Part shown: piece by piece, positions 2,542-13,814 of the stretch
Position numbering within the stretch: the first letter of the stretch is position 1
How the letters are laid out: every line of letters starts with the position of its first letter
NCBI GenBank assembly: GCA_963662335.2
Contig: CAXXVD010000001.1
Location: 608,001 to 672,000, forward strand
Reading direction: 5' to 3'
DNA from: Chloroflexota bacterium
GTDB lineage: Bacteria; Chloroflexota; UBA11872; VXOZ01
Length of the DNA: 64,000 nucleotides
Program-made: the position numbers and the translations under genes
Notes under the pieces: model-generated
Told to the model about the DNA's origin: nothing
The model's input: the letters and a program-made list of their open reading frames with translations, nothing else
The model's database searches: none

Positions 2542-3654
2542 ATGAGCGCCAGCGCCTCGCGCGCCGCCATCCTCTGGGCAATCATCCGCAAGGACTTGCT
2601 GGAATACCGCCGCGAGCGGTTCTTCGTCGTCATCACCGTCATCGGCATCGCGCTCTACGCCACCGCCTTCTGGCTGATGCCGAGCGACGTGGACGAATCG
2701 TTTGCCGTGGGCGTACGCCAGACCGGCATGGACGCCGTCTTTGCCCAGGCCATGGGCGACCAGGCTGCGGGCCTGGAAATCGTGCAGTTCGAGACCATTG
2801 AAGCGCTGGAGGCGGCGCTGGGCGTGGGCGGCGCGGAACCGGAGGAGCCGCTGGCGATTGGCCTGGCCTTCCCCGACGACTTCCTGCAACGGGTAGCCGC
2901 CGGCCAGCAGACCACGGTGCGGGTCTACGTGGACGCCAACGTGCCCGCCGAAATCCGGCGCGCCATGGCGAGTTTCGTGCGCGAGATCGCCTACGCCCTC
3001 TCCGGCAATCCCCTGCCGGTGGCCGAGCCTGACCGGGAAGTAATCGTGCTCGGTGAAGACCGGCTGGGCGCGCAGGTGCCGTTCCGCGAAAAGATGCGGC
3101 CCCTCTTTGCCTTCTTTGCGCTCATCATCGAGACCTTTGCCCTCAGTTCGCTGGTCGCCACCGAGATTCAGGCGCGCACGGTGACTGCCGTGCTGGTCTC
3201 GCCCACGCGGGTCTCCGACTTTCTAGCCGCCAAAGGCATCCTGGGCACGGGGATGGCGTTTGTCCAGGCCGTGCTCCTGCTGCTCATCATCGGCGCGTTC
3301 ACCACCCAGCCGCTCATCTTGCTCTGCGCGCTCCTGCTGGGCGCGGTGCTGGTGACCGGCTGCGGCCTGATCGCCGGCGCGGCGGGCAAGGACTTCATCG
3401 AGACGCTCTTCTACGGCATGGCCTTCATGGTGCCGCTGATGATTCCGGCAATCGCCGCGCTCTTTCCCGGCACCGCCGCGGCCTGGGTGAAAGTCCTGCC
3501 GTCCTACGGTCTGGTGCAGGCGGTGGTGCAGGCCAGCGCCTACAACGCCGGCTGGGCGGACGTGCTGCCGTACCTCGCCATGTTGCTGGCGTGGTGCGTG
3601 GTAGCCTTCGCGGCGGGATTGATAATCTTGAAGAGAAAGGTGGAGACGCTGTGA
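2542..3654 (+). CDS. ABC-2 type exporter permease
   Basis: N-terminal TM, large extracellular loop, five further TMs, E..ART..AVLVSP motif; operonic with the ATPase. Confidence 0.9.
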   Translation: MSASASRAAILWAIIRKDLLEYRRERFFVVITVIGIALYATAFWLMPSDVDESFAVGVRQTGMDAVFAQAMGDQAAGLEIVQFETIEALEAALGVGGAEPEEPLAIGLAFPDDFLQRVAAGQQTTVRVYVDANVPAEIRRAMASFVREIAYALSGNPLPVAEPDREVIVLGEDRLGAQVPFREKMRPLFAFFALIIETFALSSLVATEIQARTVTAVLVSPTRVSDFLAAKGILGTGMAFVQAVLLLLIIGAFTTQPLILLCALLLGAVLVTGCGLIAGAAGKDFIETLFYGMAFMVPLMIPAIAALFPGTAAAWVKVLPSYGLVQAVVQASAYNAGWADVLPYLAMLLAWCVVAFAAGLIILKRKVETL

Positions 3655-4718
3655 GCGGAATGAACACGTTGCACCTATTGCGCAAGGACCTGGGCGTCGG
3701 TCCGCGCTCGCCGATCTTCCTCTACGCCATCGCGCTGCCGGTGATTCTCACGCTGCTCATTCGCGTGGTGTTTGGCAGCCTCTTCGATCCCGCGCCCCGG
3801 CTGGGCATCGTGGATGAAGGCGACTCTCAGATTGTCGAGAACGCCCGCAATGTCGAGGGGGTCGAGATTAGATTTCCGGAATCCGCCGCCGCCTTGATGC
3901 AGATGGTGGAGAAAAACGACCTGGACGCGGGCCTGGTGCTGCCCATCGGCTTCGACGCGGCGTTGCGGGCGGGCCAGATGCCCAACGCGCAGTTCTTCTT
4001 CGGCGGCCAGAGCCTGGCCTCGAACCGCGTCGTGTTGGGCGTGACCATGGTTGACCTCATCCGCGAGGCGGCGGGGGCGCCGGCGCCCATCGACGTGGAA
4101 ACCGTCACCGTAGGCGATGGCGACGCGGCGCCGCTGGTAGCGCGGCTGTTGCCCTTGATCGTCCTCATGGCGGTGCTCATCGCCGGCGCGCTCACCCCGG
4201 CCACAAGCCTGGTGGAAGAAAAAGAGAAGCGCACGCTCACCGCGCTGCTGGTCACGCCGGCCCGGCTGGGTGACGTGCTGCTCGCCAAGGGCGCGTTGGG
4301 CTTCATCCTGGCCATGGCCACCGGCACGGTCACCCTGGCGCTGAACGGCGCGCTGGGCGCGAATACTGCCGCGCTGCTGTTGGTGCTGGTACTGGCGACC
4401 CTCATGGCGGCCGAGGTCGGCCTGATGCTCGGCTCGTTCGCCAAAGACACCAAAGCGCTCTACACCATCTGGAAGTCCGGCGCCATCGTCCTGCTCGCGC
4501 CCGTGATCTTCTTCATCTGGCCCAACCTGCCCCAGTGGATAGGAAAAATCTTCCCCACCTACTACTTCCTCTCTCCCCTCTTCGAGATCGCCATCCGCGG
4601 CGCCGGCCTGGCTGACGTGTGGCCGGAACTCGCCATCGGCTTCGGCATCTGCGCGGCGTTCCTGCTGGGCGTCTACGCCCTGGGGCGGCGCATGGAGTCA
4701 ACCCTGGCCGCGACATAA
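3651..4718 (+). CDS. ABC-2 type exporter permease (second subunit)
   Basis: EEKEKRTLTALLVTP motif, same topology; GTGA overlap with the upstream stop. Confidence 0.9.
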   Translation: MSGMNTLHLLRKDLGVGPRSPIFLYAIALPVILTLLIRVVFGSLFDPAPRLGIVDEGDSQIVENARNVEGVEIRFPESAAALMQMVEKNDLDAGLVLPIGFDAALRAGQMPNAQFFFGGQSLASNRVVLGVTMVDLIREAAGAPAPIDVETVTVGDGDAAPLVARLLPLIVLMAVLIAGALTPATSLVEEKEKRTLTALLVTPARLGDVLLAKGALGFILAMATGTVTLALNGALGANTAALLLVLVLATLMAAEVGLMLGSFAKDTKALYTIWKSGAIVLLAPVIFFIWPNLPQWIGKIFPTYYFLSPLFEIAIRGAGLADVWPELAIGFGICAAFLLGVYALGRRMESTLAAT

Positions 4719-4721
4719 GGA

Positions 4722-4781
4722 CGCCTGGATGATGAAGGCAGTCTCGTGTCCGCCCATCGGCCGCAGGCCAAATTGCGTTGA
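4722..4781 (+). pseudogene. Remnant 3' tail of a TolB-like array gene (RLDDEGSLVSAHRPQAKLR*)
   Basis: Translation matches the array-gene C-termini RIDDEGNLVPANSP and RLDDKGNLMPANPQ; starts right after the permease stop. Confidence 0.65.
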
Positions 4782-4885
4782 ACCCTAAACGGAATCTGTA
4801 TGTTACTGGGGATTCTCTAATCTGTTGGCCTCATCCGTTTGACATCATGGCAATATATGCGCTCTATCAGGTATATCACCCGTGA
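4778..4885 (+). other. Junction mini-ORF J0 (LNPKRNLYVTGDSLICWPHPFDIMAIYALYQVYHP*), putative metzincin C-terminal remnant
   Basis: Hand translation; open frame from a TTG overlapping the remnant stop; C-x-PHPFDI-AIYALYQ motif shared with five other junctions. Confidence 0.7.
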
Positions 4886-4904
4886 GTTAGCAAGGAGTGT
4901 CATC

Positions 4905-6227
4905 ATGCGGCGAGATTGGTCGACGCTGCGAAGGTTTCTCCTGCTGTTCACATTCCTGATCACTAGTGCTTGCAGTGGCAGCACATCTACTAGCGAGCCA
5001 GCCTACCCATGCGGGCCATTCTTCATTGGCGAGAGGGCATACAAACAATTCCCTCTCGAATGGACGCCCGACGGCAATCTTCTTATCTTTCGCGCAGGCA
5101 CAACCATTGGAGTAGTTGATGCCATAGGTACAAACCTGCGGACGCTTGCTGATGCGAATCCGGGAAACGAACTGATGTATGGCATTCATGTGGATATCTC
5201 ACCAGACGGTAGGCAGGTTGTTTACTCCAGTTGCGAATTCCCGACGGGAGGCGGGACAATACGACCCGCAAGGAAAGACTTCAACTATGAATTAGTCTTA
5301 GTCAACCTGGAAGGCACGGAAAAACAGCGTTTGACACTGAACACACATCTCGACCTCTACCCGGCGTGGTCACCCAATGGCAGCCGCATTGCCTTTGTTG
5401 CGAACCCGCGCAGCAGGCACGCGGAACTCTATGTTATGGCGGCAGATGGGTCAGATGTGCGGCAGGTAGCAACCACGCTCATAGAATCGGTTACCGAGAG
5501 ATACGGCAAGAGACTAGCGACAAACGCCCTACATACGCACTGGAAGAGAGGAGAGGGAGAAGATCTCAGCGATGACGAAGACGCGTGGTTGGGTGCCGTA
5601 GCCCTTGCGCCGCCGTTGTGGTCGCCCGACGGAAAGCGCTTGGCGTTCTTGGTCGAGGAAGGGGAGTATGGGCCGTATCAGAAGATCCTGTACTCGGTGC
5701 GCGCAGATGGAACAGACTTGAAGCGTGTGGCGGCGACGGAAGCTTTGCCAGCCTGGTCACCGGATGGGCAAAGGATAGCTCTGGTAACGTATGCCGGCGA
5801 TGATTTGGCGCTCTACACAATACTGGCAGACGGTTCTGACCCAAAGCTGATAACCACCGTAACAGAGAAGGAGACCTTCGAGCATCGGAACTCCCGATAC
5901 TTCAGCGCGGATTTTACTCTGTCGTGGTCGCCGGACGGCGCCCAGATACTCTATACCTGTGACTTTGGCGCGTGTGTAGTGAACGTAGGGAATAGCGAAG
6001 TTACTGTCTTGGTGGAGGGAACGACAAAGTGGGACGAAGAGACGTACATTGCAGCGTGGTCACCAGACGGTGCCCGCATTGCTCTGTACGTTCCCGGCAA
6101 TGACTACTACAACATACCGACCCAACTCTACACGATAGCCCGCGACGGCACCGACCGCCGCGACCTGATAGCCCTGGACACCAGCGGCAACCTGGCTCCG
6201 GCCAACCCACCGAAGGAGGCACCGTGA
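4905..6227 (+). CDS. TolB-like (PD40/WSPDG) beta-propeller lipoprotein, array gene 1 (C-terminal type A)
   Basis: AAGGAG SD then ATG 4905; lipobox ITSAC; repeated WSPDG blades; conserved YPCGP and SSCEF cysteines. Confidence 0.9.
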   Translation: MRRDWSTLRRFLLLFTFLITSACSGSTSTSEPAYPCGPFFIGERAYKQFPLEWTPDGNLLIFRAGTTIGVVDAIGTNLRTLADANPGNELMYGIHVDISPDGRQVVYSSCEFPTGGGTIRPARKDFNYELVLVNLEGTEKQRLTLNTHLDLYPAWSPNGSRIAFVANPRSRHAELYVMAADGSDVRQVATTLIESVTERYGKRLATNALHTHWKRGEGEDLSDDEDAWLGAVALAPPLWSPDGKRLAFLVEEGEYGPYQKILYSVRADGTDLKRVAATEALPAWSPDGQRIALVTYAGDDLALYTILADGSDPKLITTVTEKETFEHRNSRYFSADFTLSWSPDGAQILYTCDFGACVVNVGNSEVTVLVEGTTKWDEETYIAAWSPDGARIALYVPGNDYYNIPTQLYTIARDGTDRRDLIALDTSGNLAPANPPKEAP

Positions 6228-6321
6228 TGAACAGTGATCGGAAAATCCCTTATTTGCCAAGTTCCTTTCAAGAACCTGACTGTTCACCACACCCGTTTGA
6301 CATCCTGGCTATATATGCGCT
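6111..6321 (+). repeat. ~210 bp direct repeat spanning gene tail plus mini-ORF (copy 1)
   Basis: Near-identical to 7509-7718; tail part also matches ~10560-10681. Confidence 0.9.
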
Positions 6322-6340
6322 CTATCAGACAATTCCGTAA
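6227..6340 (+). CDS. Junction mini-ORF J1, 37 aa MNSDRKIPYLPSSFQEPDCSPHPFDILAIYALYQTIP (intact copy)
   Basis: ATG overlaps gene 1 stop (TGATG) and follows AAGGAGG; intact frame to TAA 6338-6340; motif conserved with synonymous changes across junctions. Confidence 0.6.
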   Translation: MNSDRKIPYLPSSFQEPDCSPHPFDILAIYALYQTIP

Positions 6341-6356
6341 GCAAAGGACTGTGAGC

Positions 6357-7625
6357 ATGCGACGATTCTGTTTGGCCGCATTGGGGCTGGCACTGGCCTT
6401 AAGTGTTGTCAGTTGCGGCCCACGGCAAACCGATGTATACGATGGAGACGCTTACCCATGTGGCCCGTTAGGGTTGGATGGCCCCTACCTCAATTTGGAA
6501 AGACATGTCCTTAACTGGACCCCGGACGGCTCTCAGCTCATTTTCCCCCACGATACAACCATTTGGATCGTTGACACCGCCGGAGTTCGGTTGAATGCGC
6601 TGGTTGACGTGAACCCGGACAACGAGCTTGGCTACGGCTTCCACGCCGATATTTCGCCGGACGGCACGCGCATGGTATATGCCACCTGCGAGTTCCACTC
6701 AAGCGACACCTTGTTTGTGCAACGAGATGACTACAATTACGAGATCGCCGTTATCAACCTCAATGGCACTGGTCGCCAGCGACTCACGACGAACCGAATA
6801 CTTGACTACTTTCCCGTTTGGTCGCCCGTCGGCAACCGTATCGCCTACATATCGAACCCTAGAGGAGCCAGCGACCACACCAACGAACTCTTCGCGATGG
6901 CAACGGACGGGTCGGACGTCCGGGACGTATTATCAAGTGCCACGCCTGCGAAAGTTAGCGATAGAAGACTGTATGGCAAGGTCGTGCTAGCGCCACCGAT
7001 GTGGTCGCCGCCAGACGGTAGCTACTTAGCATTTCTGGTGAATGAAGGAAGCAATATACCGTATCGGCACATTCTCTACACGGTGCACCTTGGTGCGATG
7101 GAGTTGACCCGGGTCGCAGAGGTGGCGGGTCTGCCGGAAGGCAGCCTTGTGCCAATCTTGCCGTCCTGGTCGCCGGATGGCGAACATCTTGCTTTCGTAA
7201 TGGCCGATGAGGAGGGTACGCCTGCCGGCGTCTACACTATCCGTCCAGATGCAACAGACCTGCGGCAGGTGCTGGAACCGCAAGCACCAGGTTGGAGAGT
7301 ATTCCACGTGGCTTGGGCGCCGGATGGTGCCGAGATTCTCGTCGTCACTGATCAGGGGTTGCATTTCATTCAGCCGGACGGTAGCGGTCTGCGCATGGTG
7401 GACCAGAGTACCGCGTTTCATGACTCCGTTGATAGCCTAGGGATTGCTGTGGCATGGTCACCTGACGGCACACGTATTGCGTTGTACTTACCAGGCGCTG
7501 CCTACAAGAACATACCGACCCAACTCTACACAATAGCCCGCGACGGCACCGACCGCCGCGATCTGATAACCCTGGACGCCGACGGCAACCTGGCTCCGGC
7601 CAACCCGCCGCAGGAGGCGCCGTGA
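6357..7625 (+). CDS. TolB-like beta-propeller lipoprotein, array gene 2 (type B)
   Basis: AAGGA SD, MRRFCLAAL... signal peptide, lipobox VVSC, WSPDG repeats, YPCGP and ATCEF. Confidence 0.9.
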   Translation: MRRFCLAALGLALALSVVSCGPRQTDVYDGDAYPCGPLGLDGPYLNLERHVLNWTPDGSQLIFPHDTTIWIVDTAGVRLNALVDVNPDNELGYGFHADISPDGTRMVYATCEFHSSDTLFVQRDDYNYEIAVINLNGTGRQRLTTNRILDYFPVWSPVGNRIAYISNPRGASDHTNELFAMATDGSDVRDVLSSATPAKVSDRRLYGKVVLAPPMWSPPDGSYLAFLVNEGSNIPYRHILYTVHLGAMELTRVAEVAGLPEGSLVPILPSWSPDGEHLAFVMADEEGTPAGVYTIRPDATDLRQVLEPQAPGWRVFHVAWAPDGAEILVVTDQGLHFIQPDGSGLRMVDQSTAFHDSVDSLGIAVAWSPDGTRIALYLPGAAYKNIPTQLYTIARDGTDRRDLITLDADGNLAPANPPQEAP

Positions 7626-7718
7626 TGAACAATGATCAGATTGCCCCTCATTACCAAGTTCCTTTCAAGAACCTGACTGTTCACCACACCCGTTTGACAT
7701 CCTGGCGATTTATGCGCT
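7509..7718 (+). repeat. ~210 bp direct repeat spanning gene tail plus mini-ORF (copy 2)
   Basis: Aligns with 6111-6321 with scattered substitutions and a 1-nt indel. Confidence 0.9.
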
Positions 7719-7734
7719 TTGTGAGACAAAGTGA
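7625..7734 (+). pseudogene. Junction mini-ORF J2 (MNNDQIAPH/PSSFQEPDCSPHPFDILAIYALCETK*), 1-nt frameshift
   Basis: ATG-to-TTTGAC distance is 68 nt versus 69 nt in J1; otherwise collinear. Confidence 0.7.
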
Positions 7735-7754
7735 CACTTGAGGACTCTATTGCT

Positions 7755-9119
7755 ATGGATTGGATCAAGCAGTTACCTATGTTCGTACTTGCCGCTGTAG
7801 TGTGTCTTGGCATGACTGCGTGTGCGCAAGAAAAGGGCGAAGGATCTGGCATGGATACACAGCCGACTTCCACGCCTTCAGTGCTGTCCACTCCGCTCAC
7901 CCCGCTGCCGACGCCAAGGGAAAAGGGGGACGAAACTTTGGTATTGCCCTGCGGGCCGACACCTCAGGAAGCAGGCGGTCATGATTTCTATGGCTTCGGC
8001 GATGTCTTTCTAGAGTTCACGCCAGATGGCTCCCAGCTAATGTTTTCTTACAGCACTTCCATTTGGATCGTTGATGTTGCGGGTACCCAATTGCGTATGC
8101 TGGTGAATGCCAATCCCCGAGGCAGCTTTGAATACGGCTTCCATGCCGACATTTCGCCTGACGGTACGCAGGTCGTCTTTTCGACCTGCGATTACCCTTG
8201 GGACGCTCAGAGTTTTGCCGCTAGGCATGGCAATGCATTGCTCTCACTGCCCGTATACTCACCTGACAAGTATGATATTGCCTTGATTGACATTGACGGT
8301 GACGCGCCACGGCGACTCACTAAGAGTCGATACTTGGACCACTTTCCGGCATGGTCGCCCGACGGAAGTCGCATCGCTTACATCCACTTCCTTGATAGTA
8401 CCCGCATGGGAATACCCCCCAGAACCATCCGAACGATGACGGCAAACGGCTCCGAGTGGCAGGAGGTTCAGAAGACTCGCAGTTTGGCAATTGCTGCCGC
8501 ACGGCTGGCGTGGTCGCCGGATGGGAAGAAGCTAGCATTCCTCGTACATGACTGGGAGAACTGGCCGCGTCAATATACCCTCTACACCGCCCTCGCCAAT
8601 GGCTCCGAATTGCGGAAAGTGGCTGAGAACGTTGTAAGCGACGCGGCATGGTCGCCGAATGGACAGCTTATTGCACTAGCAAGGCTCGTCGGCGAGGAAG
8701 TAGGGCTCTACACTCTGGCCGCTGACGGCTCCGACCAGAAGCTGATTGCTGCCATTAACGACATAGAGGGGTACCTGGACTGGTCTGTTGAATTCACATC
8801 TTTGTTGGTGAACTCGGAGGCGTGGTCGCCGGATGGCACTATGCTTCTCTATTCTTGTCTTGAAGGCGCATGCGTAATTGATGTCGAGAGTGGACAGAGC
8901 ATCGGGCTGGTATCCGACAGTGCAGTGAGGTATCGCCAACCTTTCATTGCAGCTTGGTCTCCGGACGGCTCGCGAATCGCGATCTATACGCCCGGGCACA
9001 CTTTTGACGGCGTACCGGCCCGGCTTTTCACAGTAGCCCGTGACGGAAACGACCACAGCGATCTGATACGTATAGATGACGAGGGCAATTTGGTGCCAGC
9101 GAACTCGCCAAGAGAATGA
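7755..9119 (+). CDS. TolB-like beta-propeller lipoprotein, array gene 3 (type A)
   Basis: GAGGA SD, lipobox MTAC, P/T-rich linker, LPCGP and STCDY, WSPDG repeats, YSCLEGAC motif. Confidence 0.9.
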   Translation: MDWIKQLPMFVLAAVVCLGMTACAQEKGEGSGMDTQPTSTPSVLSTPLTPLPTPREKGDETLVLPCGPTPQEAGGHDFYGFGDVFLEFTPDGSQLMFSYSTSIWIVDVAGTQLRMLVNANPRGSFEYGFHADISPDGTQVVFSTCDYPWDAQSFAARHGNALLSLPVYSPDKYDIALIDIDGDAPRRLTKSRYLDHFPAWSPDGSRIAYIHFLDSTRMGIPPRTIRTMTANGSEWQEVQKTRSLAIAAARLAWSPDGKKLAFLVHDWENWPRQYTLYTALANGSELRKVAENVVSDAAWSPNGQLIALARLVGEEVGLYTLAADGSDQKLIAAINDIEGYLDWSVEFTSLLVNSEAWSPDGTMLLYSCLEGACVIDVESGQSIGLVSDSAVRYRQPFIAAWSPDGSRIAIYTPGHTFDGVPARLFTVARDGNDHSDLIRIDDEGNLVPANSPRE

Positions 9120-9256
9120 ACCATGTTTAACTATCCCATATTTTCGCCTGACCCTCTGCTAGCCCATGGCAGACGCGAATCCTCGGCGTGCCTGACTGTT
9201 CACCACACCCGTTTGACATCCTGGCAATCTACGCTCTGTACCAGACGTTACCGTGA
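9116..9256 (+). pseudogene. Junction mini-ORF J3 (MNHV*...*...VPDCSPHPFDILAIYALYQTLP*), two in-frame stops
   Basis: ATG 9116 overlaps gene 3 stop and is in frame with the motif; stops at 9128 and 9149. Confidence 0.7.
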
Positions 9257-9266
9257 GGAAAGACTG

Positions 9267-10676
9267 TTGTTCCAGCGAATAGTTCGTGTAGGATTGCTTG
9301 TGCTTCTGACACTGGCTGTTGTCGCATGCCAGCAAGACTCGATCAGATCCCAACAAGAGACAACTATCGGTGAGAGGATTCAAGCTAATGCAAGTCCTTC
9401 GCCTATAGCCATCGTCGTACCAACGGCAACACCCTATCCGACTCCAGATACTGCGCCAGACGGTGAGCCAAGTTTTGATTGTGGCCCACTGGGCATGGCT
9501 GGGCCTCACGCAGCTTCAGAAAGACTGACTCTGGCGTGGACGCCGGATAGCACTCAGATCTTATTCAACTACGCGCCTACAGACAGACAGCAATATGATG
9601 GGAAACCGCTCTTCTTAAGTGCCTTTTGGATGGTGGACGCGGCCGGCACGAGGTTGCAGATGCTTGTGGATTCCAATCCCGGCTATTACTCCGCTTACGG
9701 ATATCACGCTGACTTGTCCCCGGATGGTAAGCGGATTGCATACACTACTTGCGAGTTTGCTCACGAAGGATTCCTAGGTTACCGCGGCGAAAACATGGAA
9801 CGAGCACGATTCCTGTACGAGATTGCTGTCATCAACCTAGACGGTACTGGTCAGGAGCGGATCACGGCGAATAGATATCTTGAGCACTATCCAGTCTGGT
9901 CGCCCGATGGTTACCGCATCGCGCTCATTTCAAACTCTGCCGGGCCACACAGAACCCTTCGAAACGGCCGTACTGTACTCTACACAATATCGGCAGACGG
10001 ATCCGATTGGCAACGGGTGTCGGTGCCTGAACAAACCGGCTTGGCACTCGCGCCGCCGGCGTGGTCTCCCGATGGAGTGTACCTAGCGTTCGTGGCAGAT
10101 GGAGGAGAAAACCTATCGAATAGGAGTGTTTTGTATACCGTGAGGGCAGATGGGTCAGAAGGAGGCAGAATTGCAGATATTGCGACCAAGTCAGGTCTAC
10201 TGTGGCACTTGCCAACGCTACCCAGTTGGTCACCGGATGGTAAACACCTTGCATTTGTGAAGGCTGCCGGCAATGGCAGGTCTGGCGGCATCTACTTGGC
10301 ACGACCTGATGGCTCAAACTTGCAACAAGTGCTGCAACCGCAAGAGCCGAACTGGAACATCACTCAAGTCTTGTGGTCGCCAGATGGCTCGGAGATTCTT
10401 GCAGTATCGGATCAGCGGCTTTACTTCTTCCAACCGGACGGTAGCAGTCTGCGGACGGTGGAACTGAGGGTTGAAGAATTCTACGGCCCTAAGCGAATAG
10501 TTGCATGGGCGCCAAACAGTACCCGTATCGCAATCTACACACTGTTAGACAGTAGCAGTAACATACAGCCTCAGCTCTACACAGTAGCCCGGGACGGTAC
10601 CAACCGCCGCGACCTGATAACCCTGGACGCCGACGGCAACCTGGCTCCGGCCAACCCACCGCAGGGGGCACCATGA
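9267..10676 (+). CDS. TolB-like beta-propeller lipoprotein, array gene 4 (type B)
   Basis: GAGGA SD then TTG 9267; lipobox VVAC; FDCGP and TTCEF; WSPDG repeats. Confidence 0.88.
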   Translation: MFQRIVRVGLLVLLTLAVVACQQDSIRSQQETTIGERIQANASPSPIAIVVPTATPYPTPDTAPDGEPSFDCGPLGMAGPHAASERLTLAWTPDSTQILFNYAPTDRQQYDGKPLFLSAFWMVDAAGTRLQMLVDSNPGYYSAYGYHADLSPDGKRIAYTTCEFAHEGFLGYRGENMERARFLYEIAVINLDGTGQERITANRYLEHYPVWSPDGYRIALISNSAGPHRTLRNGRTVLYTISADGSDWQRVSVPEQTGLALAPPAWSPDGVYLAFVADGGENLSNRSVLYTVRADGSEGGRIADIATKSGLLWHLPTLPSWSPDGKHLAFVKAAGNGRSGGIYLARPDGSNLQQVLQPQEPNWNITQVLWSPDGSEILAVSDQRLYFFQPDGSSLRTVELRVEEFYGPKRIVAWAPNSTRIAIYTLLDSSSNIQPQLYTVARDGTNRRDLITLDADGNLAPANPPQGAP

Positions 10677-10752
10677 TGAACCCTAGCCGGATTGTCCACC
10701 GCATGCGCTGGACATCCTGGCGATCTATGCACTCTGCCAAAGCCGCGACTGA
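10676..10752 (+). pseudogene. Junction mini-ORF J4 (MNP/*PDCPPHALDILAIYALCQSRD*), internally deleted
   Basis: ATGAAC overlapping gene 4 stop; TAG at 10684 where other copies have the Glu of EPDC; motif in frame 10687-10752. Confidence 0.7.
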
Positions 10753-10768
10753 GGATTGGAGTGTCAAA

Positions 10769-12220
10769 GTGGGACGTCTGTGGCTGGTTCTGTTGGTGCT
10801 ATTGCTGTGTCTGGCCGCTTGCGCGGAGGACAAAAGCGAGACCAGAAACAAGATCAATGAAGAGCAGGCACGTGAACTTGCGGAGCAGCGTCGTGAGCGC
10901 GACAGGATTGCCTATGAAGAGAAGCTAAAGGAGATTGAGGAACTTCGCAGGAAGCGCGACCAAGAGCTGATAGATAGCAATTTCGGGCATCCTCGCCTGC
11001 CGTGCGGAATGTCTCAGTTGGGCTATCCCCCGGTTGCCTACCACGACAATTTCTTGGTGTGGACGCCGGACGGTACACGTCTCATATTCGATGGAGGACC
11101 AGAGGCAATATGGGAGGTGAATACTGAAGGAACCGCGGTGAGAAGGCTCTTTGACATTAATCCAAATGGGAATCGACCCTACGTAGATGAGACTAAGTTA
11201 CCCTACGGCTTCTTTGCCGACGTTTCACCGAACGGAAAACTAATCGTCAGTGGCATTTGCAGGAATGACACTGGCAGGCCGATCGAACACTATGAGATCG
11301 CCGTATTCGACCTGCGCGATGGCGGGAGGCAGCTTCTCACGGACAATGCCATTCTCGACCGCTACCCGGTGTGGTCGCCGGACGGCAGCCGGATCGCCTA
11401 CGTTAGTTTCGCGAGATATTTTGGCTTACACCACCGACTCTACACAGTGGCAGCGGACGGGTCGGACAGGCGGATCGCGACTTCCGTGCCGGTTACGTTC
11501 TATCCGGCGCAAACTGCGGCTGAAGAGAAAGACGCAGCGGTACCCAAGTTAAGAGGAATTGCGCTGTTTCCGCCAGCGTGGTCACCGGACGGCAAGAAGC
11601 TGGCGTTCCTGGTATACGAAGAATCTGAAGTGAAGTACGATCCGCGTCGGAAGATACTCTACACCGTGCGGGCAGACGGTTCGGAGTTGGCACGGATAGC
11701 CGAGGATGTCGTAAGCGTGGCATCGTGGTCGCCGGACGGGCAACGGCTGGCGGTGGCCAAGTACGCCGGGGAAGCAAGAGAAGGCGTTGCGCTCTTCACG
11801 CTGGCAGCCGACGGTTCCGACGAGAAAGAGATTGCTACCATCACGGACAGCATCAGCGCATTCCGTAGCAGCTATGAGTGGAAAGTCCACACGGTGTCGT
11901 GGTCACCAGATGGGACACAGATCCTCTACTCCTGTGATGAGGGCGCGTGCGTTGTTACTTTGGAGGATGGGCAGGTGACCGGGTTGGTAACAGAACTGGA
12001 GTTGCGTGACAACGCGCCGTACATTGCAGCCTGGTCTCCCGATGGCACGCGCATCGCCGTATACGATCCAATTGGCCCCACAGCTAGCTATCCCGGCTAC
12101 GAGATGCCACCCGCGCTCTATACGGTGGCCCCAGACGGCACTGACCGTCACGATTTGCTACGCTTGGATGATAAGGGCAACCTGATGCCCGCGAACCCGC
12201 AACAATTAGAGGGATCATGA
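10769..12220 (+). CDS. TolB-like beta-propeller lipoprotein, array gene 5 (type A) with charged coiled-coil N-terminal stalk
   Basis: GGAG SD then GTG 10769; lipobox LAAC; EEQARELAEQRRERDR... stalk; LPCGM and GICRN; YSCDEGAC motif. Confidence 0.9.
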   Translation: MGRLWLVLLVLLLCLAACAEDKSETRNKINEEQARELAEQRRERDRIAYEEKLKEIEELRRKRDQELIDSNFGHPRLPCGMSQLGYPPVAYHDNFLVWTPDGTRLIFDGGPEAIWEVNTEGTAVRRLFDINPNGNRPYVDETKLPYGFFADVSPNGKLIVSGICRNDTGRPIEHYEIAVFDLRDGGRQLLTDNAILDRYPVWSPDGSRIAYVSFARYFGLHHRLYTVAADGSDRRIATSVPVTFYPAQTAAEEKDAAVPKLRGIALFPPAWSPDGKKLAFLVYEESEVKYDPRRKILYTVRADGSELARIAEDVVSVASWSPDGQRLAVAKYAGEAREGVALFTLAADGSDEKEIATITDSISAFRSSYEWKVHTVSWSPDGTQILYSCDEGACVVTLEDGQVTGLVTELELRDNAPYIAAWSPDGTRIAVYDPIGPTASYPGYEMPPALYTVAPDGTDRHDLLRLDDKGNLMPANPQQLEGS

Positions 12221-12345
12221 TGGAAGTCTACGAGATGTCCCCTGCTCTCGCAGATGTCTTTGGCGGCTGAATGGCATTCTGTGAGCCGGTTTGCACACCA
12301 CTCCGTTCGACTTCATGTCGATTTACGGCCTCTGTCCAATGCGTT
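12220..12345 (+). pseudogene. Junction mini-ORF J5 (MEVYEMSPALADVFGG*MAFCEPVCTP/PFDFMSIYGLC), decayed
   Basis: ATG overlapping gene 5 stop is in frame with EPVC; one stop, then a 1-nt deletion before PFD. Confidence 0.6.
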
Positions 12346-12353
12346 ATAAGGAA

Positions 12354-13733
12354 ATGGAGAGAAGGTTCGTGGATTTCGGACAAGAACAGACAAAACTGAC
12401 CCTGTTAGTAATTGTAATACTCGTCTTGGGTATGGTCGGCTGTGGGGAAGCAGCAGCACCTCCACATAAGCGAATAGTAAAGGATCATCCCGCATATCCT
12501 TGCGGTCCGTACTGGAACGGAGTTGGTTCCCTTGATGGTTTTCTCCATTGGATACCTGATGGCTCCGGTCTAATATTTGGACAGGAGGGGGAGATTTGGA
12601 CAACGGATAACAGCGGCAGTTCGCTGCGGCGGATTGCTCATTCCAGTTCCGACTACGAGTCTGCCATCGGCTCCTATGCGGATGTGTCGCCAAACGGCGA
12701 CAAGATCGTCTATGCGACGTGCGAGTATCGGACAGAAGAAGCCAGAGAATACGGATCAAATCCCGAGCGAAGCAAATACAACTTCGAGATCGCCGTTGTT
12801 GACTTGGCAAGCGGGGAAAAACAGCGGCTGACAACGAACGTGTACCTTGATCACTACCCGGTTTGGTCACCCGATGGCGCCCACATTGCTTTCATTGCAA
12901 ACCCACGCACTTGGGGCCGCTCCATAGGGGAAAACTCGGAAGTCTATATGATGAGGACGGATGGATCGGACGTGCGGCTGCTAGCTTCCACCTTAAACGA
13001 AGTGAGCACTGGGAGATGGGAAACAAACGCCATCGCAAACAGTCTGAAGAGATCCAAGGGAGAGAAGATTGAGGAATCTGTTGAGCCGTGGCTAGGCGCG
13101 GTAGCCTTGGCGCCGCCGGTGTGGTCCCCAGTCGGTGAGCACGTGGCTTTTCTGGTTGGAGAAGGTCCAGGCCCTAACTTACATGATCGGGCAGTTCTCT
13201 ATACGGTTCGGCCAGATGGATCGGAGTTGACACGGATTGCGGAAGCGATGTTCCCGCCGTCGTGGTCACCAGACGGCAACTTCCTTGTCTTCGTTAGGGC
13301 AGACGAGGAGGGCAAGGCCGCAGGCGTTTACACTGCCCGTCCCGATGGTACCGAACTAGCACAGATCCTGGCGACACAAGAACCTGAGTGGGTAATCACT
13401 CAAGTGCTGTGGTCACCGGATGGGCAGGAAATCCTTGCAGTCTCGGAGCAGCGGCTCGATTTTCTCCAGCCTGATGGCAGTGGTTTGCGAACTATCGACA
13501 TGGCGCTAGATCCAGAATCGCTCGCGGCTGGGCTCAGACCCAGCTTTGGGCTGATTGCCGCATGGTCGCCGGATAGCGCACGCATTGCCTTTTATGTCCC
13601 ACTTCACGAGCGCTATGAAGTGCCATTAACACTCTACACCCTGGCGCGAGACGGAAAAGACAGGCGCGACCTGGTCACTCTGGATGAAGACGGCAACCTG
13701 GCCCCAGCCAAGCCGCCACAGCAGTCCGAGTGA
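12354..13733 (+). CDS. TolB-like beta-propeller lipoprotein, array gene 6 (type B C-half, gene-1-like insert)
   Basis: Lipobox MVGC, YPCGP and ATCEY, WSPDG repeats; start is ATG 12354 or GTG 12369. Confidence 0.88.
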   Translation: MERRFVDFGQEQTKLTLLVIVILVLGMVGCGEAAAPPHKRIVKDHPAYPCGPYWNGVGSLDGFLHWIPDGSGLIFGQEGEIWTTDNSGSSLRRIAHSSSDYESAIGSYADVSPNGDKIVYATCEYRTEEAREYGSNPERSKYNFEIAVVDLASGEKQRLTTNVYLDHYPVWSPDGAHIAFIANPRTWGRSIGENSEVYMMRTDGSDVRLLASTLNEVSTGRWETNAIANSLKRSKGEKIEESVEPWLGAVALAPPVWSPVGEHVAFLVGEGPGPNLHDRAVLYTVRPDGSELTRIAEAMFPPSWSPDGNFLVFVRADEEGKAAGVYTARPDGTELAQILATQEPEWVITQVLWSPDGQEILAVSEQRLDFLQPDGSGLRTIDMALDPESLAAGLRPSFGLIAAWSPDSARIAFYVPLHERYEVPLTLYTLARDGKDRRDLVTLDEDGNLAPAKPPQQSE

Positions 13734-13814
13734 TGACCTATGCAATAGCACTCGTTGCATTTGTACCGCACGGGTTGTTGGGAGTGTCCCTTCTCCTTTT
13801 TCCCCTACTCCTAC

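Follow-up and report, generated by a model that had tools for sequence, protein, structure and literature searches.

Conserved blocks in a lipoprotein gene array

The window analysed here is a stretch of 64,000 nucleotides (nt) from the 3.2-Mb genome of a Chloroflexota bacterium (contig CAXXVD010000001.1, positions 608,001 to 672,000 of the forward strand; G000:C1:608001-672000), and our subject is a short conserved block that recurs in it in front of each of six lipoprotein genes. Six paralogous genes, all in the same orientation and all coding for beta-propeller lipoproteins of PD40 type (PF07676), occupy window positions 4700-13800; two ABC-2 permease genes flank them on one side, and guaA, which is on the opposite strand, on the other. 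A block of ~57 nt is found ~40-70 nt 5' of each of the six lipoprotein starts; one of its frames reads ..PDCSPHPFDILAIYALYQ.., with the consensus peptide (E)PDCSPHP(F/L)DI(L/M)AIYAL(Y/C)Q, and a stop comes 2-4 codons later. A first-pass annotation, made from the letters alone, had reported a hidden conserved frame at these places, and three-frame translation recovers all six of the peptides that it quoted, in the frames that it gave. We consider it probable that the blocks are decaying 3'-terminal stumps of matrixin-like secreted zinc protease genes whose bodies were lost. In kind they would be something known, an ordinary gene remnant, within a family that is undescribed. The six blocks, J0 to J5, are as follows, each with its 19-codon core.

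4733..4885, plus strand: J0 stump; open frame ..IALNPKRNLYVTGDSLICWPHPFDIMAIYALYQVYHP to the stop, core 4814-4870, TGA 4883-4885
6227..6340, plus strand: J1 stump; complete 37-codon open reading frame (ORF) MNSDRKIPYLPSSFQEPDCSPHPFDILAIYALYQTIP, core 6272-6328, stop TAA 6338-6340
7625..7734, plus strand: J2 stump; junction ATG 7625-7627, tail open frame 7636-7734, SDCPSLPSSFQEPDCSPHPFDILAIYALCETK to the stop, core 7669-7725
9152..9256, plus strand: J3 stump; PSASPWQTRILGVPDCSPHPFDILAIYALYQTLP to the stop, core 9188-9244
10676..10752, plus strand: J4 stump; junction ATGATGAAC, a deletion, TAG 10684-10686, then PDCPPHALDILAIYALCQSRD to the stop (10687-10752), core 10684-10740
12271..12338, plus strand: J5 stump; MAFCEPVCTP in one frame, PFDFMSIYGLC in another, core 12282-12338

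The block is an island of identity, with a pairwise mean of 0.75, as against 0.36 in the upstream flank, 0.38-0.51 in the downstream flank and ~0.5 in the gene bodies. Minimal substitutions among J0-J4 are distributed 7/6/21 over the three codon positions (21 of 34 at the third; binomial P=6.4e-4); over the last 11 codons the counts are 3/1/12, or 5/3/14 when J5 is included (P=0.0035). The excess of third-position differences that the first-pass annotation had remarked upon is hence real, if not exclusive, as Y>C, Q>E, S>P, P>A and S>W are also present. A run of 35 nt (CCTGAC..CTGGC) is identical across J1, J2 and J3, and beyond it J1 and J3 show 6 synonymous differences.

Such a block could also be a cis-acting DNA or RNA element serving the downstream gene (a promoter with TTGACA in the F-D-I codons, an operator, a leader or a recombination site), with the reading frame incidental. 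The perfect TTGACA in J0-J3, the confinement of the identity island to 41-70 nt before the start codon and the 35 nt shared by J1-J3 would all suit an element of this sort, but the hexamers found 17 nt past TTGACA are CTCTAT, CTTTGT and CTGTAC, none of them -10-like, and many of the copies in relatives have ATGGAC or CTGGAC, not TTGAC. Neither a spacer nor an operator explains variation at every third base, and the block is homologous to coding sequence, as set out below. We accordingly rejected a promoter, a consensus scan having returned no plus-strand site at any tail (and no terminator between the genes), and also an RNA element, the block having 0 Rfam matches at E<=1 and an RNAalifold consensus fold of -1.99 kcal/mol without covariation; overall, a cis-acting role appears very improbable to us. 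Coding on the reverse strand was dismissed because, by eye, stops are met there.

The frame has not fared equally well in all copies. It is open in J0, J1 and J3, but J4 is interrupted by its TAG, J5 is frameshifted within the block and J2 is off the frame of its junction ATG. Likewise, all six blocks do precede lipoprotein genes, but J3 and J4 are not strictly intergenic, in that the mechanical ORF of the downstream gene passes through each of them in another frame. The ATG of J1 (6227-6229) overlaps the stop TGA of the upstream PD40 gene (6225-6227) by one base (GTGATGA), with GGAGG 8 nt upstream. J2 is 90% identical to J1 across 86 nt, and a 1-nt difference in length places its tail outside the junction-ATG frame, in a frame that has no start codon. 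The sole in-frame start of J0 is a TTG with no clear Shine-Dalgarno (SD) sequence, and a junction remnant, ATGATGAAG, lies upstream of it, out of frame; that of J3 is a GTG, 8 codons before the F and with no SD. In J4, the TAG directly precedes PDC, the tail frame has no start and the junction-ATG frame continues into the downstream gene. J5, whose second frame also runs on into the downstream gene, is the most decayed copy, with a position-matrix score of 4.6 vs 25-39 for the others.

The probable parent protease family

When the genome was searched with the J1 peptide, matches were found in 10 places (E 2.8e-22 to 2.4e-4), corresponding to five of the six window copies (J5 was missed) and to five further tail copies in a second cluster ~200 kb upstream. 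A six-frame regular expression returned 11 places genome-wide, all on the plus strand of contig C1 and within the two clusters; the homology of J5 was recognised by eye and through this expression only. Three of the five upstream copies are the true C-termini of long ORFs, of 1665 aa, 709 aa and 595+186 aa (split), and it is here that the proposal of a Met-turn-to-C-terminus piece of a metzincin or matrixin, put forward in the first-pass annotation, finds its footing, for all three are HExxHxxG ORFs that end in the same motif. Their ends read ..FNxC..VHE(A/G)GHALG(I/L)..H(H/A)P..D(S/A)(V/A)(M/L)(N/S)Y(E/D)..EPDC(S/A)PHPLD(I/V)(M/L)AIxA(L/I)YQ.. before the stop, with HEAGHALG(I/L) or HEGGHALGL, a downstream His, and SVMSYE, AAMNYD or SVLNYD 13-17 residues before the tail. 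In the largest, of 1665 aa, a signal peptide, Pro/Thr linkers and ~10 FN3-like repeats precede the catalytic domain.

A profile of the protease domain matches five of the six window copies (E 1.4e-9 to 1e-3) at positions 255-297 or 276-297 of 298; J1 is aligned over 6197-6334 to positions 255-297, with E 1.4e-9, and in many stumps the match begins at positions 254-258. The start of J1, MNSDRKIP..SFQEPDC, resembles AMNYDNKIPGGSFKEPDC in a full-length protease of relative G005. From this resemblance, together with the many matches that begin at 254-258, we take the J1 ATG, which now overlaps the upstream PD40 stop, to be the Met-turn Met codon of the protease. The junction GTGATG is also conserved in intermediates of ~87 aa found in relatives, which likewise begin V-M-(S/N/Y)-(Y/F); we considered this as an objection to a Met-turn origin of the J1 ATG, and it was overruled by the match MN(S/Y)D(R/N)KIP..SF(Q/K)EPDC. 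Of the window copies, J1, J2 and J4 keep the Met-turn codon in the form of their junction ATG, and J0 has a Leu in its place; the L-N..C spacing of J0 fits, by eye, the SVLNYD..PDC of a full-length copy. J3 and J5 retain only the part after the Met-turn, and no part of the HExxHxxGxxH/D motif is left in any of the six stumps. A stump would thus consist of the protease end from the Met-turn, or from some later point, with the loop EPDCSPHP, the last helix xDI(M/L)AIYALYQ, a further 2-4 codons and the stop.

Thirteen full-length domains were aligned, and a 25-sequence profile was used to search PDB sequences. Across the 13 domains no variation is seen in the H, H and G of HExxHxxG, in the third H, or in tail residues C, P, P, D, A, Y and Q; the Glu is conserved in >=90%. 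An (S/A)(V/A)(M/L/V)(N/S)Y Met-turn is conserved 8 residues after the third His. This third His lies 13-60 residues beyond HExxHxxG in most members, owing to an insert, as compared with the HExxHxxGxxH/D spacing of the metzincin zinc motif; the canonical spacing (HESGHALGLDH) is seen in one 88-aa remnant. Against PDB sequences the profile ranked MMP-14 (matrix metalloproteinase) first (E 9.2e-4), then MMP-20, myroilysin, serralysins and archaemetzincin. The commonest weak Pfam match is to PF00413, seen below threshold in 15 of 25 family members (best E 3.1e-4), and the window genome's own copies match it with E 0.033 and 0.31; no member reached the gathering cut-off of 24 bits, the best score seen being 18.7 bits (P0017, E 0.0017). 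Residues 382-441 of 444 of P0017 align to positions 103-158 of 159 of the matrixin profile, and the tail is thereby matched with the closing part of that domain. One database relative of 115 aa bears a precomputed PF00413 match. A profile comparison, which the first-pass annotation had proposed as a check, thus supports the relation through MMP-14 and the tail alignment, with all Pfam scores staying below cut-off.

We conclude that the family is best described as a divergent, matrixin-like metzincin lying beneath the Pfam threshold for PF00413. With the M10 group (MMPs, serralysins, myroilysin) it appears to share the HExxHxxG helix, the third His and the Met-turn 8 residues later, and with MMPs a collinear N-terminal match, TYxYRIC..W..I..A..W..AT, to their first strand and helix. 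The last helix of matrixins reads D-D-I-x-G-I-Q-x-L-Y-G, and the D-I-M-A-I-x-A-L-Y-Q of the family can be read as its counterpart. Unlike M10 proteins, the family scores under the Pfam cut-off, has the 13-60-residue insert before the third His in most members and carries an extra conserved PDC(S/A)PHP loop, whose Cys is paired in position with FNxC; its domain also sits at the extreme C-terminus of long proteins rich in FN3 repeats and Pro/Thr linkers, the relation being one of sequence.

The family is not small. The domain profile finds it in 15 of 41 genomes, the window genome included (14 of 40 relatives), among them 10 of 16 other genomes of the genus and four of seven in one other family of the class. 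In a library of 1.84 billion proteins, the profile matches 1025 representative proteins, 389 of them at E<=1e-30, with the domain nearly always extreme C-terminal, and 11 of 12 loci of named relatives belong to Chloroflexota or Dehalococcoidia metagenome-assembled genomes. NCBIfam holds no match to the protease family, and a literature search, with supplementary files outside its reach, returned nothing on the family or on protease stumps before lipoprotein genes. The parent family is, then, a large and unnamed one, paired with lipoprotein genes in Chloroflexota. An arrangement of this general kind is known from Pseudomonas aeruginosa, where the gene for the secreted metzincin Mep72 is immediately followed by a co-oriented gene for an exported protein, according to PMC4334185; unlike the Mep72 pair as given there, the window has no protease partner, and the PD40 and leucine-rich repeat (LRR) lipoproteins are paired with the protease by gene adjacency alone.

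In the second cluster (G000:C1:406440-429052, outside the window; L004-L008, L011, L026, L040), matrixin-like protease genes alternate with lipoprotein genes, one of which is of PD40 type while four end in ..GLEYCE or ..DLDYCE. One of its proteases is split into the 595 + 186 aa mentioned above. The cluster also contains two LRR proteins of ~750 aa whose ORFs extend ~200 nt into the next protease ORF, in a different frame, where there is a Pro/Thr-repeat; we may be dealing with one frameshifted gene, with two genes, or with a misassembled repeat.

Truncation, exchange and selection among related copies

Using the motif in the last 10 codons, we collected 45 tails from the window genome and seven relatives (8 genomes), and these form a graded series: 11 whole genes, ~10 intermediates of 80-180 aa, which begin shortly 5' of FNxC and retain HExxH, third His and Met-turn, and 23 tail-only stumps. 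Wherever the surroundings of a copy are contained in its locus, a lipoprotein gene, of PD40 or LRR type, comes next, at a distance of -4 to 49 nt and in most cases of 10-19 nt. A scan independent of the motif covered 54 ORFs (46 evaluated, 8 not evaluable) and found a recognisable tail upstream of 39 of the 46 lipoprotein genes (score >=23.8; null maximum 16.4 in 500 draws); at least three of the seven low scores come from misplaced scan windows, tails being known at those places. The same scan also turned up decayed versions of the last 10 codons, namely DHMAIHALH before a stop, DIKAICALYQ and DFMSIYGLCP.

The locus with ABC-2 permease genes, array and guaA is syntenic in two relatives, with six PD40 genes here, four in G005 and three in G011. 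In G005, junction 1 holds a 20-codon stump, syntenic with J0, and junction 2 the 88-aa remnant with HESGHALGLDH..FIMNH. When 32 downstream PD40 proteins are placed on a tree, the labels whole, intermediate and stump are scattered (14 changes vs a shuffled mean of 13.4), and near-identical PD40 genes have a whole protease upstream at one site and stumps at two more. Either truncation recurs or modules are exchanged, and the mosaic pattern of identity speaks for the latter. PD40 genes 0, 1 and 3 are 90-93% identical over their last ~100 nt (6115-6211, 7513-7609 and 10564-10660), as against ~50% in the gene bodies, which looks like a conversion or recombination tract that starts in the 3' end of the PD40 gene and continues through the junction as far as the stump.

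In the 19-codon core, pooled pN/pS (the ratio of non-synonymous to synonymous differences per site) is 0.187 in whole genes, 0.191 in intermediates and 0.245 in stumps, so that the codon alignment and selection analysis suggested in the first-pass annotation does find a synonymous excess in the 45-copy set. The values of pS, 0.65-0.77, are near saturation, and therefore most of the synonymous divergence is old. Private changes number 17 non-synonymous and 1 synonymous in the 23 stumps, and 4 and 2 in 21 longer copies; since this singleton test is biased against saturated third positions and its Fisher comparison of synonymous with non-synonymous changes is not significant (P=0.14), we place the weight on the rate per copy. 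Eight of the 23 stumps are altered at one of 6 positions that are invariant in the longer copies. We conclude that the synonymous pattern is probably for the most part a legacy of past selection, overlaid by short gene-conversion tracts, and that the stumps are now under relaxed constraint; past selection, as the first-pass annotation worded it, was the right expression.

The history that we propose starts from an organisation observed in the genus, a multi-domain protease gene directly 5' of a lipoprotein gene, with the protease stop mostly 10-19 nt before the lipoprotein start. In the window array the protease bodies would have been lost, leaving the tail joined to each lipoprotein gene, and the resulting units of tail and lipoprotein gene may have multiplied and been shuffled by unequal recombination and short gene-conversion tracts. 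Codon-periodic variation would mostly have been gained while the tails still belonged to working, anciently diverged protease paralogues. Decay is in progress in the form of frameshifts, a premature TAG, lost starts and radical replacements at residues invariant in whole genes. The tails may have persisted through being physically attached to the ribosome-binding region of the downstream gene, and because conserved tail and conserved PD40 3' end would supply homology for recombination. Overlap of a start with the upstream stop by a single nucleotide is a classic coupling arrangement; J1 combines this overlap with a complete 37-codon ORF, and is probably translated by termination-reinitiation, as a by-product.

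The copies resemble 3' pseudogene fragments in tandem paralogue arrays, being truncated, frameshifted and graded in length, varying in copy number between species (six, four and three) and showing mosaic identity with sharp tract ends. Unlike typical remnants, the same gene end is retained at nearly every junction (39 of 46 lipoprotein genes), and the stump often keeps a start codon that overlaps the upstream stop.

These two departures bring us to an alternative in which the tails are live small genes, a short ORF ending ..DI(M/L)AIYALYQxx before its stop being kept since its translation sets that of the next gene. A peptide of 20-45 aa would be made from the overlapping ATG and selected either in itself or as a relay ORF, and the ~87-aa 'mini-metzincins' of sister species may still work as minimal enzymes. 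ORFs of ~87-90 aa whose ATG overlaps the upstream PD40 stop are found in L046 (G008:C2) and L043 (G005:C1), on the minus strand, and in P0151; they retain FNPC, HEAGHAxG, third His, Met-turn and tail, and have no signal peptide. Several observations would favour such genes. In J1 and ~10 stumps of relatives the TGATG overlap with the upstream stop is in frame in spite of differences in the length of the N-terminal part. The stump stop is 10-19 nt away from the next start and in many cases overlaps the SD of that gene; in J2, J3 and J4 the junction-ATG ORF, in the other frame, still ends beside the downstream start or enters it; and pN/pS is 0.34-0.57 in pairs of stumps and 0.35 in a two-species pair of 87 aa that keeps all zinc ligands.

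On the other side, four or five of the six window copies are unable to make the peptide and only one in six is intact, about half of all stumps are broken (by a hand count from our table, the junction ATG is in frame in ~10 of 24), and private radical changes are in excess in the stumps. A relay ORF has no need of a conserved peptide, and no signal peptide is present in the stump peptides, although the parent proteases are secreted. Stand-alone short forms are seldom met with, there being 22 proteins of 47-153 aa among 5.8 billion, almost confined to the genus and each in 1-3 contigs, as compared with the 1025 representatives of the whole domain. Finally, a spacing of ~20 nt almost eliminates termination-reinitiation in both E. 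coli and Haloferax, according to PMC10666635, and reinitiation across the 10-19 nt between stump and gene would therefore be weak. We judge it improbable that the tails are kept as live genes or relay ORFs, and prefer to see them as protease stumps in decay.

Some of our own results weigh against this preferred reading nonetheless. In the motif-collected set, second-position entropy of the stumps is up only in the first 9 codons, although the apparent constraint on the last 10 is partly an artefact of collecting the copies by a motif located there. The ratios of 0.34-0.57 given above, from stump pairs sharing a junction, are below 1, and three stump pairs pooled by hand show 30.8 synonymous and 51.2 non-synonymous differences where ~18 and ~64 would be expected, so that some continued constraint in the stumps, or conversion from selected copies, may play a part. 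N-terminal parts of 13, 16, 22 and 23 codons are still in frame in ~10 stumps. In eight cross-species pairs of units, the last 30 nt of the tail are the best conserved bin (0.80, with adjacent coding sequence at 0.56-0.63). The syntenic J0 stumps of the window genome and G005 differ 4/3/10 by codon position, neither having a good start, and a stump reading needs independent truncation or conversion to account for this. Similarity within the array is barely raised (0.751 vs 0.732; 12 of 2000 shuffles reach 0.751), and therefore conversion is not pervasive; by the same figures, concerted evolution was rejected as sole explanation, being too weak alone. Conversion from selected copies, independent truncation in the recent past, or weak selection acting on a relay ORF would each be consistent with these signs of residual constraint.

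The frameshifts, moreover, are read from one assembly, and contig breaks fall at the J2 and J4 frame breaks. Contigs of four same-study runs break at the repeated junctions 6094-6280, 7558-7677 and 10477-10741; they span J0 (4700-5078) and J3 (9196-9595) without indels, and those of runs X1, X3 and X4 cover the J5 region (11909-12400) without difference.

For annotation, our reading means that the six blocks should be marked as protease gene remnants, neither as genes nor as regulatory motifs. On the biological side, they bring to light a large, unnamed family of matrixin-like proteases (1025 representative clusters) whose genes are paired with lipoprotein genes, and they make the turnover of such arrays visible, with six, four and three units at one syntenic locus, where whole genes are met next to intermediates and stumps. 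As regards method, the case illustrates well that codon-periodic variation can be inherited and non-current in DNA that is not a gene, which calls for caution in gene finding of the dN/dS or RNAcode style. We see the interest of the case as moderate, and chiefly in annotation and in the dynamics of protease-lipoprotein arrays.

The lipoprotein genes and their junctions

The six downstream genes are listed here with their likely starts.

4905..6227, plus strand: PD40 lipoprotein gene 0, signal peptide with Cys; PF07676
6357..7625, plus strand: PD40 lipoprotein gene 1, start 16 nt 3' of the J1 stop
7755..9119, plus strand: PD40 lipoprotein gene 2
9267..10676, plus strand: PD40 lipoprotein gene 3, likely TTG start, 10 nt 3' of the J3 stop
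10769..12220, plus strand: PD40 lipoprotein gene 4, likely GTG start, 16 nt 3' of the J4 stop
12369..13733, plus strand: PD40 lipoprotein gene 5, likely GTG start

For genes 3 and 4, TTG 9267 and GTG 10769 are the more likely true starts, because each adjoins an SD and a lipoprotein signal peptide; the 5' extensions of these genes in the mechanical ORFs (9123.. and 10673..) are artefacts of reading through the stumps. PD40 genes 0, 1 and 3 each terminate with two TGA stops in a row, and the resulting TGATGA, at 6225-6230, 7623-7628 and 10674-10679, contains an ATG that spans the two.

The array also differs slightly among samples of the same study. In runs X2 and X4, contigs continue past 7613 with ..GAGTGATGAACTATGC.., a different junction sequence, and these samples may therefore contain variants of the array that belong to other strains or to paralogues. 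The sole indel listed between the run contigs and the window is a 3-nt insertion (GAT) behind 6385, in the signal-peptide region of PD40 gene 1, carried by the contigs of three of the four runs. Upstream of the array, at 2542-4718, the adjacent ABC-2 permease ORFs overlap by 64 nt as listed (GTG at 3591 vs end at 3654), and the true start of the second permease gene is probably further downstream.

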